Assembly: GCA_963843795.1 (NCBI GenBank) | Contig: CAWJLW010000006.1 | Span: forward strand, 2,108,001-2,172,000 | Source: an uncultured bacterium | GTDB taxonomy: Bacteria; Armatimonadota; Abditibacteriia; Abditibacteriales; Abditibacteriaceae | Direction: 5' to 3' | Length of the DNA: 64,000 nt | Part shown: in pieces, positions 5,184 to 62,709 of the stretch | Layout: each line of letters opens with the position of its first letter | Position numbering within the stretch: position 1 is the stretch's first letter | Notes under the pieces: model-generated | Database searches by the model: none | What the model was told of the DNA's origin: nothing | What the model saw: the letters and a program-made list of their open reading frames with translations, nothing else | Program-made: the position numbers and the translations under genes

Positions 5184-6773
5184 CTATGCTGATGTCGGAA
5201 GTTCAATCATGGCGATGCTCACTTGAACGCCGTTATCAATTCGTGCTAATTCCAGTTGCCAATTGTTGGCTTCACAAATGGCTTGACAAATGGCGAGACC
5301 CAAACCGTTGCCGCCGGTTTGCGAATGGCGCGCGGCGTCGGGTCGATAAAAGGGTTGCAGCCATTTTTCAATGGGTTCGGAGTCGTTGGTCACGTTCGCG
5401 CCCGAGTTATCTACCGATTCCACCGCATTCCACACGCGCAGCTGGGGCATCGCATTTTGCAATTCGACTTTGATCTGGCTATCGGCGGGCGCATATTTAA
5501 CCGCATTCTCTAAGAGGTTGCGCGCGAGCATGGAAGCGTGAGTGGGTGCACACTCGATTGCAACGGCATCATCTGGTGCAAGTACTTGCAGGTCGAGATG
5601 GCGCGCATCAATGGTTTTCAAAAGCGGCGAAAGCGCCAAATCGCACACCTCCACTAAATCTAACATCTCGCGCGGCGGCTGCGCGCTCGCTGCGTGCAGT
5701 TGATTGAGCGTGAGTAAATCACGGACCAGATCAGTAAGGCGCTGAGTTTGAACGCTCGCTTCTTCCAACGTTTGCCGATAAGTTTCGGCATCGCGCGGAC
5801 GGCTCAAAGCCACCTGCAAATGTCCCGAAAGCGCTTGTAGCGGTGTGCGCAATTCGTGCGAGGCGGCGGTGTGAAACTGTTCCTGCGCGCGTGCCGAAGC
5901 ACCGACGGCGCTTAGCAATTCGTTGAGCGTGCCAACTAATTCGCGCATTTCAGCATCGGGCGAAGGCGACTGCAAATTAATCTGTGGCGCATTATGTAAC
6001 CCCGCGCTGCGCGCGATGTGACGCGCCTGACCCGATAGCCGATGAATTGGTGATAACGTGCGTCCGACCAAAGCCCACGCGCCCAGTCCCGCCGCTACCG
6101 CCACGACCAGACAAAGCAGCCACAAGTTGCGCGCTTGATCGTTGAGCGTGCGCTCGACGCGTTCCCAAGGCACACCAACCGTAACTTCAAGCGGCCCGAA
6201 AGCGAAATAGGTCGCGCGCCACGCCGCGCTGTTAGTTCTTACCGGCAGTTCGCCTTCGATCACGCGCGTACCGCCGCTGGTAATTTCAACGATCTGCCCC
6301 TTGTCCAAAGCCTTGCCATCTTCACTCCTGAGCCACCGCTGGCCCATCAGCGCGCGCCGATCGGGTGAAAGCGGCGGCGCGCTGCTGAAATTATCCACAA
6401 CTTCTGACCCCGAACGACGACGCGGACGACGTGAATCTTCGTCGCCATTTTCGCTGCTTCGATTTTCATTATCGTTGCTTCGCGGCGGGCGATTGCGCGA
6501 ACGCGGTTGCAGCCACACGACAACATCGGATTCGATGCGGCGCGTTGAAGAACGCGTATTGCGGGCAGCGAGCAAACGCACTATATCGCGCGCATCGGTT
6601 CCAGTTGTTAACTGAGCACGCACATCACGCGATGCGCTACGCAAAATAATTTGCGCGCGATACTCCGAGGCACGCCGCGCGTTCCACACGAGCGCCATCC
6701 CAATCATCGCCATCACGATGACAATCGCCATCACAAAGCCCGAAGTCATGCGCGCTCGAATCGAATGAAACAT
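5184..6773 (-). CDS. Membrane sensor histidine kinase (HAMP-HisKA-HATPase)
   Basis: Two TM segments, ASHELRTPL H-box, NLLENAVKY N-box, GGNGLGLAI G2 box; downstream of a response regulator. Confidence 0.92.
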   Translation of the reverse strand: MFHSIRARMTSGFVMAIVIVMAMIGMALVWNARRASEYRAQIILRSASRDVRAQLTTGTDARDIVRLLAARNTRSSTRRIESDVVVWLQPRSRNRPPRSNDNENRSSENGDEDSRRPRRRSGSEVVDNFSSAPPLSPDRRALMGQRWLRSEDGKALDKGQIVEITSGGTRVIEGELPVRTNSAAWRATYFAFGPLEVTVGVPWERVERTLNDQARNLWLLCLVVAVAAGLGAWALVGRTLSPIHRLSGQARHIARSAGLHNAPQINLQSPSPDAEMRELVGTLNELLSAVGASARAQEQFHTAASHELRTPLQALSGHLQVALSRPRDAETYRQTLEEASVQTQRLTDLVRDLLTLNQLHAASAQPPREMLDLVEVCDLALSPLLKTIDARHLDLQVLAPDDAVAIECAPTHASMLARNLLENAVKYAPADSQIKVELQNAMPQLRVWNAVESVDNSGANVTNDSEPIEKWLQPFYRPDAARHSQTGGNGLGLAICQAICEANNWQLELARIDNGVQVSIAMIELPTSA

Positions 6774-6806: not shown

Positions 6807-6870
6807 GCGAAAATGAAAGCTAAAAGTGCGCTGCAAGTACTTGCAGCGCACTTTTAGCTTTCATTTTCGC
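6807..6870. repeat. 64-bp perfect palindrome centred on GCAAGTACTTGC
   Basis: GCGAAAATGAAAGCTAAAAGTGCGCTGCAAGT|ACTTGCAGCGCACTTTTAGCTTTCATTTTCGC; right arm overlaps the end of the response regulator CDS. Confidence 0.95.
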
Positions 6871-7528
6871 GCATCGAATAACCGGCGCCGCGCACGGTGT
6901 GAATAAGTGGTTTTTTGTGGCCGCGATCAATTTTGCGGCGCAGATAAGAAATGTAAACTTCGAGCACGTTGTCATTGCCATCGAAATCGTATTGCCAGAC
7001 GTGTTCCAAGAGCGCGGCGCGCGTCAAGACCGAACCGGCGTGGCGCATCAGATATTCGAGCAACGTGTATTCGGTCGAAGAAAGCGCGATATTTTTGCTA
7101 CCGCGTTGCGCCTGTCGCGTGGCCGGATCGAGCTTGAGATCATCGACTTGTAACGCGACTGGCGAACTCGCGCCGCGCCGCAACATCGCGCGAACACGCG
7201 CCAAAAGTTCATCGACTTGAAACGGTTTGACCAAGTAATCATCGGCTCCGGCATCCAAACCCTGTACTTTGTCTTCGGTGGTGTCGCGCGCGGTAATCAT
7301 CAAAATCGGCGCGCGGATTTCGCGCGCGCGTAAGCGGCGACACACTTCCAGACCGTTCAAGCCGGGCAACATCACATCCAATAAAATTAAATCGAAAGCC
7401 TGTTCGCTGGCGGTTTGCAAAGCGCGCGCGCCATCGTCGCACAATTGCGTACCGTAACCGGCTTCGCCCAACGCCTGCACCAGAAAGCGCGAAACCGCGT
7501 CGTCGTCTTCAACTACCAAAACGTTCAT
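6854..7528 (-). CDS. OmpR/PhoB-family response regulator
   Basis: VLVVEDD, DLILLDVMLP, GADDYLVKPF, IHTVRGAGY. Confidence 0.96.
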   Translation of the reverse strand: MNVLVVEDDDAVSRFLVQALGEAGYGTQLCDDGARALQTASEQAFDLILLDVMLPGLNGLEVCRRLRAREIRAPILMITARDTTEDKVQGLDAGADDYLVKPFQVDELLARVRAMLRRGASSPVALQVDDLKLDPATRQAQRGSKNIALSSTEYTLLEYLMRHAGSVLTRAALLEHVWQYDFDGNDNVLEVYISYLRRKIDRGHKKPLIHTVRGAGYSMRENES

Positions 7529-12482: not shown

Positions 12483-12516
12483 AAAACCGGCCTGCAAGTA
12501 CTTGCAGGCCGGTTTT
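12483..12516. terminator. 34-bp palindrome with 12-mer core, probable terminator after rplT
   Basis: AAAACCGGCCTGCAAGTACTTGCAGGCCGGTTTT. Confidence 0.75.
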
Positions 12517-13815: not shown

Positions 13816-13907
13816 GCCGCATTTTGGCGCCGCTCTGCCCTGCAAGTACTTGCAAGTACTTGCAGGGTTTGTTTTAACCGTTATTTCGTTTTTGGAGAAT
13901 TAAATTT

Positions 13908-18762: not shown

Positions 18763-18828
18763 CTGATTTGACGCACCAAAAAAGCCGCTGCAAGTACTTG
18801 CAGCGGCTTTTTTGGTGCGTCAAATCAG
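18763..18828. repeat. 66-bp perfect palindrome centred on the 12-mer, between convergent pyrH and J-domain genes (likely bidirectional terminator)
   Basis: CTGATTTGACGCACCAAAAAAGCCGCTGCAAGT|ACTTGCAGCGGCTTTTTTGGTGCGTCAAATCAG. Confidence 0.95.
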
Positions 18829-19735: not shown

Positions 19736-19794
19736 AAACTCAATCGCACAGTTTGGCCCTGCAAGTACTTGCAGGGCCAAACTTTTGTCGATTT

Positions 19795-23060: not shown

Positions 23061-23096
23061 CAAAAGTGCGCTGCAGGTACCTGCAGCGCACTTTTG
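23061..23096. repeat. 36-bp perfect palindrome with compensated variant core GCAGGTACCTGC
   Basis: CAAAAGTGCGCTGCAGGT|ACCTGCAGCGCACTTTTG. Confidence 0.9.
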
Positions 23097-27457: not shown

Positions 27458-27597
27458 AATTTTCACGCCTTTGATTGAGTTGAAATTGAGTTGCTAAATT
27501 GAATTTGCTGTGTTTAAAGAATGACAAATCTGGAGCAAAAATGCCACAAAAGCGCACTGCAAGTACTTGCAGCGCGCTTTTGTGGGTTCAACTCAAT

Positions 27598-29101
27598 TTA
27601 ATAAGTCGAGGCTTTGGCGACTTCACGTTCAGCGTGACCATTGGAAGTTACCAGTTCTTCGTCGCCCGGTTTCATCCAGCACAGATTCAAACATTTCGCA
27701 GCGTTGGCTTCGTCCAGGCGACCAATCGGCTGCGAGTGCGGCGCGTGGTGCAACATTTCGGCGTCGGTTTCGGCTTCTTTGGCGATCAGTTTCATCGCAT
27801 CGCAAAACGCATCGAGCGTGGCTTTGGTTTCGGTTTCGGTCGGCTCGATCATCATCGATTCTTTGACAATGGTCGGAAAATAAACCGTCGGCGCGTGAAA
27901 ACCGTAATCGGGCAAACGCTTGGCGATGTCCCACGCCGTCACGCCGTATTTGCTTTTCAAAGCGCTCGCCGAAAGCACGCATTCGTGCTTGCACAAGTTG
28001 TCATTCGCCGTGCCATAAGTGTCTTTCAAACGCGCCAGCACATAGTTGGCCGCCAGAACCGCGTTTTCGGAAATTTCTTTCAAGCCGCTATCGCCGTGAC
28101 GCAAGATGTAAGTCAGCGCGCGCAGAATGACGCCGCTGTTGCCGCGAAAACGCGTGCAGTTGGCCGACCGAATCGGGACGGTCGAAATCCATCACGTATT
28201 TGCCATCGCGCTCGACGACGTGCGGCGTGGGCAGAAACGGTTCGAGAATATCGCGCACCGCGACCGGCCCCGCACCCGGCCCGCCGCCGCCGTGTGGCGT
28301 CGAGAAAGTTTTGTGAACGTTGAAATGCATCACGTCGATGCCGGTGTCGCCCGGTTTGACCGCGCCCAGAATCGCGTTCATGTTCGCGCCGTCCATGTAA
28401 ACCAGCGCGCCCTGTTCGTGCGCCAATTGGCACAAAGTTTCGATTTCGCGCTCGAACACGCCCAGCGTGTTCGGGTTGGTAATCATCACCGCAGCCACAT
28501 CCGGCCCTAAAGCTTCGCGCATCGCTTCGATATCAACGCAACCGTTTTCATCCGAATGCACTTGCGTCACGTCGAATCCGCAGCGCGCCGCGCTCGCCGG
28601 ATTGGTGCCGTGCGCCGAATCGGGAACCACAATGCGCGTGCGCGTCGCACCATCTCCGCGCGACTGATGATAAGCGCGAATCATCAGTAATCCGCAAAAT
28701 TCGCCCTGCGCTCCGGCCAAAGGCTGCACTGTTGCGGCGTGCAAACCGGCGATTTTCGCCAAGACATTTTGCGCGCGGAACAACACTTCGAGCCAGCCTT
28801 GCGTCGAATCGTCACTTTGCAAAGGGTGCACAGTGGCGAAACCGGGCATTCCAGCCACGACTTCGTTGATTTTCGGGTTGTACTTCATCGTGCACGAACC
28901 GAGCGGATAAAATTCGGTGTCGATGCTGAAATTTAGCTGCGACAATTTGGTGTAATGACGCACCACGGAATGTTCGTCCAAAGCGGGCAGCGGCAAATCG
29001 TCGCGCATCGCAAAATCGAAAGCGGCTTCCGGCACGTCGAGAGGCGGTAAGTAATCGTTGTATTGGCCGGGCGAGGAAAGCTCGAAAAGAATCGGTTGCA
29101 T
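27598..29101 (-). CDS. gcvPB: Glycine dehydrogenase subunit 2, interrupted by a +1 frameshift near 28147-28150
   Basis: YPLGSCTMKYNP, SAHGTNPASA, HFNVHKTFSTPHGGGGPG, then NAVLAANY, GFHAPT, MIEPTETE in the second frame. Confidence 0.93.
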
Positions 29102-33230: not shown

Positions 33231-33268
33231 GCAAAAGCGCCCTGCAAGTACTTGCAGGGCGCTTTTGC
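33231..33268. terminator. 38-bp palindrome with 12-mer core between convergent mdh and DUF1559 genes
   Basis: GCAAAAGCGCCCTGCAAGT|ACTTGCAGGGCGCTTTTGC. Confidence 0.85.
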
Positions 33269-37241: not shown

Positions 37242-37315
37242 ACCAATGTTGCATTTCAACTTCAAAACAAAAAGCGTGCTGCAAGTACTTGCAGCACGCT
37301 TTTTTATCAATATTG

Positions 37316-43802: not shown

Positions 43803-43840
43803 ATAAAAGCGCGCTGCAAGTACTTGCAGCGCGCTTTTAT
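43803..43840. terminator. 38-bp palindrome with 12-mer core between convergent genes
   Basis: ATAAAAGCGCGCTGCAAGT|ACTTGCAGCGCGCTTTTAT. Confidence 0.85.
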
Positions 43841-48569: not shown

Positions 48570-48757
48570 ATTTCTAATCCCGTTGTGGAACGCTGTGTGG
48601 AAGCAGGCAGTTTAGCCGATTTTTCGGTGCGCTTCCGGCATCACAATGCGCGTTTAATCGTTGCCAAATCGAAGCACATAACAAAACGCGCCCTGCAAGT
48701 ACTTGCGCAAGTACTTGCAGGGCGCAATTGTCATTATTCAATGTTCTAAAATCTCAA

Positions 48758-54812: not shown

Positions 54813-54917
54813 AATTTTTCAGAGATTTAAGCAAAGTTGAAATTTGAATGTCCTGCAAGTACTTGCAGGACATTCATTGAAGAAAACGAGTATTAAACTG
54901 CTTCTGTCAACAGCGTG

Positions 54918-58570: not shown

Positions 58571-59383
58571 ATGACTTACTCACTTTTTGATTTATCCGAC
58601 CGCACCGCGATTGTCATCGGTGGAACCGGTGCTTTGGGCGGAGCGATGGCGAGCGCTTTGGCCGCAGCGGGCGCGCACGTCGTGGTTGTCGGACGCGACA
58701 GCGAACGCGGTGAGGAACGCGTCACCCAAATTATCGACGACGGAGGGCAAGCGACTTTTCATGAGGCCGACGCGATGCAGGTCGGAGATTTGGAGCGCGT
58801 GCGCGACGAAGTTCTGGAAATGCGACCTTCTTTAGATATTCTAGTCAATGCGGCGGGCGGCAATCGACCCGAAGCCACGCTTCCGCCGGGCGCGGAATTC
58901 GGAGATTTATCGGTTGAAGCGTGGGGCGATGTTTTCGATTTGAATTTGGTCGGCGGTGCGCTGTTGCCGTGCCAGATTTTCGGGACGGCGATGGTTGCGG
59001 GCGGCGCGGGTTCGATTATCAATATCGCGTCGATGTCGGGCATGATTCCGCTTTCGCGCGTCGTGGCTTATAGCGCGGCCAAAGCTGCGGTTTTGAATTT
59101 GACACAATTTTTGGCGCGCGAATGGGCGTTGCGCGGCGTACGCGTCAATGCGATTAGTCCGGGCTTTTTCCCCGCCGACCAGAATCGCGCGCTGTTGTTC
59201 AACGAAGACGGTTCCTATTCACAGCGCGGCGGGCAGATTATCGCGCATACGCCGATGGCACGTTTTGGAAACGCGGAAGAATTGGCCGGAGCCGTCATCT
59301 GGTTGGCCAGCGAACGTGCTTCGAGCTTTGTCACCGGACAAAACATCGTGGTCGATGGCGGTTTTAGTTCGATGACAATTTAA
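58571..59383 (+). CDS. SDR oxidoreductase (D-mannonate oxidoreductase-like)
   Basis: GGTGALG, LVNAAGGN, YSAAK, RVNAISPGFF, VDGGFS. Confidence 0.9.
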   Translation: MTYSLFDLSDRTAIVIGGTGALGGAMASALAAAGAHVVVVGRDSERGEERVTQIIDDGGQATFHEADAMQVGDLERVRDEVLEMRPSLDILVNAAGGNRPEATLPPGAEFGDLSVEAWGDVFDLNLVGGALLPCQIFGTAMVAGGAGSIINIASMSGMIPLSRVVAYSAAKAAVLNLTQFLAREWALRGVRVNAISPGFFPADQNRALLFNEDGSYSQRGGQIIAHTPMARFGNAEELAGAVIWLASERASSFVTGQNIVVDGGFSSMTI

Positions 59384-59439
59384 ATTTCGCGCCTTGCAAG
59401 TACTTGCAAGGCGCGAAATTGGCAAGGCGCTTTCTCAAT

Positions 59440-60934: not shown

Positions 60935-61000
60935 AGAGATTGTAAGACCAAAATGCAGGCTGCAAGTACTTGCAGCCTGCATTTTGGTCTTACAATCTCT
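60935..61000. repeat. 66-bp perfect palindrome centred on the 12-mer between convergent trpG and polX
   Basis: AGAGATTGTAAGACCAAAATGCAGGCTGCAAGT|ACTTGCAGCCTGCATTTTGGTCTTACAATCTCT. Confidence 0.95.
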
Positions 61001-61011
61001 CGCATCTTCAT

Positions 61012-62709
61012 TTAACGCTGCGCTTTAGTACGTTGCAGCCACGCTTTTAATTCATCCGCCGATTTACAATTCAGAACATTGGCTTCTTCGCACCACGCGC
61101 GGCGTGCAGTCGTCACGCCGAGTTCGATGTTGCCCAACATCCGCGTCGAGTGTGCGTCGGTGTCGATGCATAGCAAAACGCCCGCATCACGCGCTAATCG
61201 GGCGTTTTCTGCACTGAGGTCGAGGCGCTGGCTGGCATTGATTTCCAGCGCGGTATCGTGTTCGCGCGCGGCGGCGATGAGGGCTTCGACATCGACATCG
61301 TAACCGGGGCGACCGCCCAAAATCCGGCCAGTTGGATGCGCGATAAGATCAACAGCGGGATGAGAAATTGCGCGCACCATGCGCGCGGTTTGTTCTTCGC
61401 GCGATAGGTTGAAAGCGGAATGCACACTGCCAATGACGAAATCTAATTCGTGCAAAATTTCGTCGTCCAAATCTAAAGTGCCATCGCGCAAAATGTCGCA
61501 TTCGACGCCGCGCAGAATAAGCAAATTGGGAAACTGCTGGCGTGCGGCTTCAATTTCCTGCGCTTGTTCACGCAAACGCGCTGCGGTGAGGCCATTAGTC
61601 ATGGCCAGAGCTTTGGAATGGTCGGTGACGGCGAAATACTCGTAGCCACGCGCGCTCATCACTTCAGCCATTTGTGCAATCGTCGCGACCCCATCGCTCC
61701 AGGTTGAATGCGTGTGCAAATCGCCGCGAATGTCGGAAATTTCCAGCAATCGGGGCAGCGTGTTTTGGGTCGCAGCTTGCCATTCGCCGCGCCCTTCGCG
61801 CAGTTCGGGCACGATGAAAGGCACTTGCAGGCTTGCGTAAATTTCCTCTTCGTCCGAACTTTCGGCCAGCAACAAGCCCCACGCCAGACCAAGTTCAACT
61901 GCACGATTTTCGGCCTGCTCCAAATGCGCGGGCGAACCGGTCATCGAAAGGCGTGATGCGCCAAAGTCTGCCGGGCCGCTGCAACGCAGCAGCACTTCGA
62001 AACCGCCACGCACTGTGACGCGCGCGGCACTCATAGTGCGTTCAACGACATCAAGCACGACCGGCAAAGTCGTGAACACATCTAAAGCGCTCCGAAAATT
62101 GTCGCAGCGTGCCAGGAGTTCAATCGAAGGTACGGTTTCACAGCCGCGCCGCACATCGCCAACGATTTCAACGCGCTCCATTATGGGCGCTTGTCGCAGC
62201 AGATCGCATAAAGAATTTGCCAGCGCAAGCGCTTCGCCAAGGGGCAGTTCCTGCGTGGTTTGCTCCAAGCGCTCGATACCTTGCGCGATGTTTTGTAGCG
62301 CTTTGGGTCCGAAACCGGAAACGTCTTTCAACGCGCCGCTTTCGATGGCTTGTTTTAAAGCCGCTACTGAACTGATGTTTTGCTCGCGATACAGTTGCGC
62401 GACGCGCTTGGGCCCAAGGCCGGGTACTCGCAAAACATCGATCAGCCCGGGCGGATATTCTTCGCGCAAACGTTCGAGATAACGCATCTGGCCCGTAGCG
62501 ACATATTCGCGGATTTTGGCGGCGGTTGCTTCGCCAATGCCTTCGAGTTCGCGCAACGATTTTTCTTCGACATCTTCAATCGGTTCGGGATAAGCGGCAA
62601 CGGCTTCGGCGGCGCGCTTGTAGGCGCGAATTTTAAACGGGTTTTCGCCCGCCACTTCCATCAGGGCGGCAATTTCATCGAAGTGTGCGACGATGCGTGC
62701 ATTTTCCAT
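61012..62709 (-). CDS. polX: DNA polymerase X family / PHP 3'-5' exonuclease
   Basis: ENPFKIRAY, VPGLGPKR HhH, PELRE, PHP motifs DLHTHSTWSDG, TDHS, IAHPTGR, DTDAH. Confidence 0.93.
   Translation of the reverse strand: MENARIVAHFDEIAALMEVAGENPFKIRAYKRAAEAVAAYPEPIEDVEEKSLRELEGIGEATAAKIREYVATGQMRYLERLREEYPPGLIDVLRVPGLGPKRVAQLYREQNISSVAALKQAIESGALKDVSGFGPKALQNIAQGIERLEQTTQELPLGEALALANSLCDLLRQAPIMERVEIVGDVRRGCETVPSIELLARCDNFRSALDVFTTLPVVLDVVERTMSAARVTVRGGFEVLLRCSGPADFGASRLSMTGSPAHLEQAENRAVELGLAWGLLLAESSDEEEIYASLQVPFIVPELREGRGEWQAATQNTLPRLLEISDIRGDLHTHSTWSDGVATIAQMAEVMSARGYEYFAVTDHSKALAMTNGLTAARLREQAQEIEAARQQFPNLLILRGVECDILRDGTLDLDDEILHELDFVIGSVHSAFNLSREEQTARMVRAISHPAVDLIAHPTGRILGGRPGYDVDVEALIAAAREHDTALEINASQRLDLSAENARLARDAGVLLCIDTDAHSTRMLGNIELGVTTARRAWCEEANVLNCKSADELKAWLQRTKAQR

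Follow-up and report, generated by a model that had tools for sequence, protein, structure and literature searches.

Long perfect hairpin arms, almost confined to terminator positions, surround copies of a single palindromic 12-bp word, GCAAGTACTTGC, in the 4.3-Mb genome of a member of the Abditibacteriaceae (G000). The explanation that we consider probable is that terminator hairpins seated on this iterated word have had their arms perfected and lengthened by hairpin-primed (intrastrand) template switching during DNA replication.

The palindrome at 6807-6870 and its companions in the window

A palindrome scan of the window, the whole 64,000-nucleotide stretch of DNA analyzed here, located a perfect, spacer-less 64-bp palindrome at 6807..6870 (unstranded; 32-bp arms; centre between 6838 and 6839), which confirms the coordinates given in an earlier reading made from the sequence only (the sequence-only reading). 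The core word occupies 6833..6844 (unstranded). The inner part of the palindrome (6822..6855, minus strand) is predicted to be terminator-like and comprises an A-tract that takes in the AA of the regulator stop codon, a GC-rich stem, and a U-tract of just 4 U at 6825-6822. Minus-strand RNA of 6807-6870 has a folding energy of -63 kcal/mol (z=-10.5); Rfam returned zero matches within the window. Past the U-tract, the outer left arm (6807..6821, plus strand) is an inverted copy of 6856-6870, the end of a response-regulator gene. This gene (6854..7528, minus strand) encodes an OmpR-family response regulator, according to domain matches (PF00072 and PF00486), and its product ends in MRENES. As had also been claimed, the right arm holds the gene end with its stop codon, amounting to the last 17 nt of the gene.

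The partner sensor histidine kinase (PF00512 and PF02518 domain matches) is encoded at 5184..6773 on the minus strand. Its start is likely the ATG at 6773, where the predicted product begins with MFHSIRARMT, a motif common to relatives. Since this start lies 80 nt past the regulator stop codon, the palindrome would fall in an 80-nt spacer within a two-component operon. The regulator C-terminus has the same length as in relatives and resembles that of relative L009, which ends in GENER, so the gene end likely predates the left arm. Such sequence comparison favours gene-to-spacer copying at 6807-6870, and we infer that 6807..6821 was copied from the regulator gene end. Several relatives (L007, L094, and L109) have a hairpin of their own between the same regulator and kinase; the inner hairpin may therefore set regulator-to-kinase transcript ratios. 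In G001, a 63% complete genome, the kinase had no match.

The five further palindromes named in the sequence-only reading are all present, centred on GCAAGT/ACTTGC (the solidus marks the centre), and have unrelated outer arms. Two of them have 33-bp arms and join 6807-6870 as the three longest, as that reading had it: one at 18763..18828, between convergent amino-acid-kinase-family (plus strand) and DnaJ-TPR (minus strand) genes, and one at 60935..61000, between convergent class-I glutamine amidotransferase (plus strand) and PolX/PHP-like (minus strand) genes. The remaining three lie at 59383..59420 (19-bp arms, where a short-chain dehydrogenase gene ends), 54845..54876 (16-bp arms), and 19750..19783 (17-bp arms, after a T2SSF/PilC-family gene). 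The scan also detected core-centred palindromes at 12483..12516 (17-bp arms), 33231..33268 (19-bp arms), 37269..37304 (18-bp arms), and 43803..43840 (19-bp arms), and doubled-core palindromes at 48688..48725 (12-bp spacing, 19-bp arms) and 13838..13867 (10-bp spacing, 15-bp arms). At 23061..23096, a palindrome with 18-bp arms has a mirrored double change in its core (GCAGGT/ACCTGC), one of three such cases genome-wide. The hairpin at 27544..27585 (C6:2135564) is typical of an inner-mismatch class described below: its only mismatch lies at position 9, counted from the centre, and its 12-bp outer arm is perfect. All of these features are unstranded. Three of the nine arms of at least 31 bp in the genome happen to fall in the window.

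Two side observations concern neighbouring genes. The PolX/PHP-like gene that adjoins the palindrome at 60935-61000 (61012-62709; PF14716, PF02811, and a weak PF14791 match) is probably there by coincidence. Downstream of the glycine-cleavage P-protein gene, window positions 27598-29101 contain two overlapping minus-strand ORFs with an apparent frameshift near 28148, likely a split gene or an assembly error.

Abundance of the word and length of its arms

Among named organisms, the threonyl-tRNA synthetases (ThrRS) nearest to that of G000 come from Abditibacteriaceae, at 70-77% identity. G000 has 2,567 exact copies of GCAAGTACTTGC, distributed over all 11 contigs, versus 68 copies of the commonest one-mismatch variant, and each of 40 relatives has 0-3 copies. 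Word dialects were found in G001, G009, G012, G015, and G019; those centred on AGTACT include (C)AAAGTACTTT(G) in G001 and TCGAGTACTCGA, present in 2,261-2,770 copies in G009, G015, and G019. Rough gene calls place 748 copies of GCAAGTACTTGC inside genes. A/T-rich tracts lie about 8-11 and 18-22 bp out from the word, inside genes too. Adjacent cores in G000 are spaced by 12 bp in 20 cases, by 13 bp in 10, and by 10 bp in six. Further core-to-core peaks are found near 20-21, 29-30, 39-42, and 50-51 bp, a spacing that suggests helical phasing of neighbouring words. Literature searches found nothing on the 12-mer and, for palindromes in this lineage, only unrelated work.

Other repeats were also seen in the family. 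G006 is without AGTACT and carries a repeated half-word, AGTACGGTCGA, as inverted pairs in terminator-like hairpins (L137, L142, L147, and L157 in G006; L135 in G012), one of which lies between the same regulator and kinase (L007). Other abundant REP-like repeats are ACACCAGCCACGTCC, CAGCCACGCCG, and GAGGGACGTCCGCC, with loci L106/L107 (G016), L104 (G007), and L093-L096 (G002), and a paired element of about 70 bp is common to G009, G015, and G019 (L098:5930-6001 in G009). Within about 200 bp at G000:C4:10127-10330 there are four spacer-less palindromes centred on GTATA/TATAC that have no relation to the core and may belong to a mobile element or an origin.

Perfect arms of at least 20 bp surround 125 of the 1,619 intergenic core copies, and arms of at least 30 bp surround 10; re-pairing left and right halves at random gives expectations of 0.2 and 0.00, respectively. 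Arm lengths peak a second time at 16-18 bp and then tail off up to 39 bp. According to the gene calls made for this analysis, which are rough, arms of at least 15 bp occur at 181 of 291 convergent sites (62%), 268 of 1,256 tandem sites, 20 of 267 divergent sites, and only six of 748 coding sites (0.8%). The 16-18 bp peak consists of the core, a GC-rich stem, and then a U-tract shortly past a stop codon, in the shape of an intrinsic terminator, and long-arm centres lie about 28-36 bp past the stop codon (median range). With long arms placed about 30-35 bp behind stop codons, their inner 17 bp resemble intrinsic terminators, a function predicted from position and shape.

Although a terminated transcript stops at the U-tract, arms continue past it with a per-base extension of p=0.756 (255 arms of at least 18 bp), versus about 0.26 for position-wise matching in shuffled halves. 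Arms end sharply: among 357 arms of at least 17 bp, runs of at least three pairs past the first mismatch number five, versus 7.6 by chance. The idea of a copying process that extends symmetry outward, put forward in the sequence-only reading, thus agrees with extension at about 0.76 per base, sharp ends, a lack of decayed remnants, and an excess over core-less terminators. The same reading had proposed a length cap near 33 bp, which we reject: exact-core arms of 38 and 39 bp are present, as are arms of 38 and 37 bp around a damaged centre, and the geometric tail predicts 2.9 arms of at least 34 bp where two were seen. Arms of 31-33 bp are somewhat over-filled relative to the geometric tail (seven versus 3.8 expected). 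A limit set by the neighbouring stop codon was rejected as well, as stop-crossing arms numbered 28 versus 29.3 permuted at convergent sites and 16 versus 19.6 at tandem sites. Arms showed no trend along chromosome position (rho -0.06, p=0.20), and intergenic length, considered for replacement versus insertion, did not correlate with arm length (rho 0.08, p=0.31). Three convergent gene pairs (G000:C6:1437718, 1009328, and 1987589) have both stop codons within the palindrome arms, each the exact mirror image of its partner, which looks as though the stop of one gene had been the template for that of the other.

Mismatches are unevenly placed along the arms. In 434 perfect and 83 one-mismatch hairpins, 73 mismatches were found among 3,951 pair-positions at 1-9 from the centre (1.8% per position) and 10 among 2,621 pair-positions at 10-30; positions 18 and beyond had one in 384, versus 7.1 expected at the inner rate (p=0.007). 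Mismatches are thus kept at the tip and removed in the arm, and the arm excess over chance involves unique sequence. Inner-mismatch hairpins, of which 45 of 76 have the mismatch in the core, do not differ in length from perfect ones (p=0.63). Mirrored double core changes occur in three hairpins, versus 0.065 expected from independent hits, and copying through the tip therefore happens, but rarely. Apparent frameshifts affect four of the 157 genes tested in the assembly (about 2.5%), and part of the inner mismatches could therefore stem from sequencing errors close to the tip of the hairpin. To judge from these patterns, outer-arm symmetry and mismatch placement are marks of putative DNA-level copying.

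Selection at the RNA level could in principle build the whole arm, if read-through transcripts, above all those between convergent genes, gained from stems of 25-39 bp through RNase III-type processing or 3'-end protection. This account, which we find unlikely, is consistent with the concentration of long arms at terminator positions, with tails that are longer at convergent than at tandem sites (mean 20.4 versus 19.4, p=0.007), and with the stable minus-strand fold of 6807-6870 and the hairpins in the same spacer of relatives. RNA stems tolerate G-U pairs and bulges. G-U pairs are not preferred on the transcribed strand of core hairpins (11 G-U versus nine A-C in the arms), which have a single bulge and no imperfect outer remnants; this argues against RNA selection, as do outer arms that share no sequence and have a geometric length distribution. 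What RNA selection does account for is the inner 17 bp, which template switching on terminator hairpins likewise leaves to selection.

The sequence-only reading had centred the process on the core, and this part of its proposal holds in some comparisons and fails in others. Overhangs of at least 5 bp past the T-run occur in 44 of 331 core hairpins versus five of 124 strictly core-less terminator-like hairpins (p=0.004), and overhangs of at least 8 bp in 25 of 331 versus one of 124 (p=0.003), although the excess is not significant if the T-run has to pair in full (p=0.28 and 0.09). The arms are accordingly not explained as ordinary terminator stems without an excess, with the caveat that significance is lost under the whole-T-run rule. 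By contrast, core-less hairpins with 0-2 nt spacers extend like core hairpins: 14 of 63 versus 130 of 499 have arms of at least 20 bp (p=0.65), and the comparison at 25 bp or more gives p=0.15. Short spacers are enriched among core-less hairpins (63 of 119, versus two of 19 in unrelated bacteria; p=0.0004, with differing arm thresholds, 14 and 15). Since core-less short-loop hairpins extend similarly, we regard the core as an abundant spacer-less seed and not as a proven trigger. Three core-less spacer-less palindromes (G000:C6:452615, 1119442, and 3101178) have a centre that resembles a tetraloop plus its inverted copy (GAAA/TTTC, GCAA/TTGC), a possible U-turn signature.

A core-specific factor, either a nicking or hairpin nuclease or a bound protein that stalls the fork, might instead trigger fold-back synthesis at the word. 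The overhang excess of core hairpins at 8 bp or more speaks for such a factor, as do the 12-bp and 13-bp spacings of adjacent cores, which outnumber the 10-bp spacing expected from slippage at end microhomology. The phased A/T tracts that flank the word even inside genes suggest a bound protein, and protein-DNA blocks stimulate template switching in E. coli (PMC6357072). Against it stand the similar extension of core-less short-spacer hairpins and the undiminished length of inner-mismatch hairpins; in addition, no stand-alone small GIY-YIG protein was found, the two matches lying in 672- and 450-aa frames, and the sole weak Y1 transposase match is without a core cluster. We therefore regard a core-specific trigger as quite unlikely. 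In a further, doubtful version, a reader of the AGTACT word would stall or nick DNA and drive arm conversion, the lineage tag would act as seed and trigger, and about 430 hairpins would record priming over about 9-10 bp and an overshoot of about 4 bp. If true, terminators would renew themselves from a lineage-specific recognition tag that serves both as seed and as trigger.

Repair genes, other genomes, and a proposed mechanism

We considered whether SbcCD or another structure nuclease cuts extruded hairpins, with repair from the other arm making them symmetric. The check for sbcCD called for in the sequence-only reading found sbcD and sbcC side by side with open frames, and sbcC-like matches are present in 26 of 27 family genomes, as this scenario would need; the palindromes are therefore not due to loss of the two genes. 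Extrusion should be easiest in divergent spacers, with their negative supercoiling, yet these have the fewest long arms among intergenic sites. Palindrome cleavage, furthermore, usually leads to deletions and is reported for much longer palindromes, which leaves nuclease-driven symmetrization very improbable.

Missing repair functions were likewise rejected as causes. Loss of sbcCD, mutL, or ExoVII is contradicted by the finding of sbcD, sbcC, mutL, and xseA. In G000, mutS is split by a frameshift, real or a sequencing error, near model residue 635 (G000:C6:2528642-2531330). G001 and G009 have long arms and mutS matches over the cut-off, so mutS loss is not needed, and the apparent frameshift rate of the assembly bears on the split itself. 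ExoI was not found in G000, and exonucleases of the PF00929 family (DEDDh; DnaQ/RNase T/ExoX-type) were not found in G000 or in 35 of the 41 genomes of Armatimonadota that were searched, where a different domain may provide proofreading. The missing ExoI and PF00929 exonucleases may be permissive. As a lineage-specific cause their absence was dismissed, PF00929 being widely missing in the phylum and other Armatimonadota having two arms of at least 20 bp in 380 kb.

Across genomes, we counted perfect inverted repeats (arms of at least 20 bp, spacers of at most 10 nt) in the whole of G000 and in samples of the others. G000 has 206 (48 per Mb). The relatives have four in 125 kb (G001), 12 in 302 kb (G009, some of them paired repeats), one in 160 kb (G010), none in 140 kb (G007), none in 80 kb (G002), and six in 40 kb (G016, several being paired repeats); unrelated bacteria have two in 1.18 Mb. 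At a site shared by G009 (L231, 25 bp) and G015 (L250, 16 bp), the arm sequences differ and each is perfect. The orthologous hairpins L182 and L197, and L184 and L187, also have differing arms, each perfect, and in L187 the left arm agrees with the hairpin's own right flank over four more bases. The nearest orthologous pairs are 73-85% identical (about 80-85% for the three locus pairs with mirrored differences), and mirrored differences could therefore also reflect compensatory selection. One of two g6 orthologue searches yielded no shared hairpin, and within-genome duplicates yielded no usable allele pairs.

The palindrome at 6807-6870 is known from the assembly only. The sequencing runs listed comprise three of DNA, from one study, and none of RNA. 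Contigs from the three DNA runs match the window at 99-100% identity in short pieces, and among the matches listed (24 of 208 contig pieces of sequencing runs) none spans 6807-6870. Along with the apparent frameshifts of an assembly that is probably long-read (11 contigs), this would fit an origin of the long arms in assembly or polishing. Artefacts would be blind to gene orientation, however, and long arms recur in independent, highly fragmented assemblies that are presumably short-read: within 115 kb of G001, arms around a different word measure 30, 25, and 23 bp, and metagenome loci L192, L193, L198, and L175, themselves selected on a 22-bp palindrome, have arms of 24, 23, 23, and 21 bp. 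The complete G009 genome shows arms of 25 and 24 bp. An artefactual origin is thus highly unlikely.

Hairpin-primed template switching, the reading we prefer, can be laid out in four steps. First, the word is self-complementary and occurs everywhere, and every copy is therefore a spacer-less seed. Second, to judge from position and shape, copies about 30-35 bp past a stop codon that have a GC stem and a U-tract would be kept by selection as terminators or 3'-end stabilizers. Third, a nascent strand that has passed the centre would fold back, prime on about 9-10 bp of its own hairpin, and copy the first arm, overwriting mismatches beyond the priming zone and sparing those inside it; sometimes it would overrun the old arm end before returning, which would produce the geometric tail of about 0.76 per base. 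Fourth, at 6807-6870 such an overshoot may have copied the last codons of the regulator into the spacer before the kinase gene, and the outer arm would be a neutral by-product. No dependence on replication direction was detected (26 of 446 co-directional terminators and 16 of 363 head-on ones have arms of at least 20 bp) in a comparison that is blind to the donor arm.

Most work on template switching concerns individual hotspots in reporter genes. The common centre of more than 400 natural hairpins in G000 allows correction and overshoot to be followed position by position: the inner 9 bp are uncorrected, the outer arm is almost free of errors, and the tail is geometric. Should accurate reads confirm it, this pattern would provide a natural measurement of the priming requirement. 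It also serves as a warning that perfect, co-varying stems need not mean RNA function, and shows how an iterated tag can supply a genome's terminators.

Comparison with known systems

Among short iterated words, GCAAGTACTTGC resembles the DUS/USS of Neisseriaceae and Pasteurellaceae, which have thousands of exact copies in genes and spacers together with reading-frame bias, lineage dialects, A/T-rich phased flanks, and a strong association with terminators (bioRxiv 10.1101/2025.10.24.684340; see also PMC3630211). The G000 word likewise has a high copy number, few one-mismatch variants, copies in genes and terminators, a reading-frame bias, phased A/T-rich flanks, and dialects. DUS and USS themselves are not palindromes, and a stem takes an inverted pair of them on either side of a loop, unlike the self-complementary G000 word, of which a single copy forms a hairpin tip. 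The likeness rests on sequence features and any uptake role is putative; ComEC (PF03772) is present in 27 of 27 family genomes, whether or not they have the word.

The word also recalls HIP1 of cyanobacteria (GCGATCGC), a short iterated palindrome with about one copy per 1-2 kb, also in coding sequence (PMC4390886, PMC5861425); GCAAGTACTTGC, too, is a highly iterated short palindrome of about that density that occurs within coding sequence. HIP1 is an 8-bp word, in contrast to the 12-bp G000 word, which has an AGTACT centre and dialects between close genera. Also unlike HIP1, 63-70% of G000 copies are intergenic and seed long terminator palindromes. PF01555 methyltransferase-domain matches were found in 27 of 27 family genomes at the domain level.

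REP/RAYT and NTS/Ssn repeats similarly form many extragenic hairpins, some in operons, with a conserved stem and an oriented asymmetric flank (PMC11893778). In G000, by contrast, only the 12-16 bp centre is conserved and both flanks are symmetric. Identity with these families was rejected given variable arms and a symmetric logo, which pools both sides and could miss a weak one-sided signal. In G000 (92% complete), searches for a cognate gene with repeats on its flanks, of either the Y1 transposase or the small GIY-YIG type, found none.

The closest likeness is to quasi-palindrome correction by replication template switching, the Ripley model, in which mirrored changes and stem extension arise (PMC5941160, PMC8794818, PMC6357072); a switch that jumps backward leaves the loop untouched (PMC8794818). 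Perfect arms of unrelated sequence and an uncorrected zone at the tip fit this model as well. All short E. coli MG1655 repeats, as reported in PMC5941160, are under 20 bp, unlike the at least 20-bp arms found in such number in G000. Listings of openly available literature showed no work in which terminator arms grow out of an iterated palindrome. Most G000 repeats grow from one iterated spacer-less word and hence leave a position-resolved footprint. The process is a known one; what is new is its seed, a palindromic iterated tag, and that footprint. The G000 system probably works like quasi-palindrome template switching acting on terminator hairpins.
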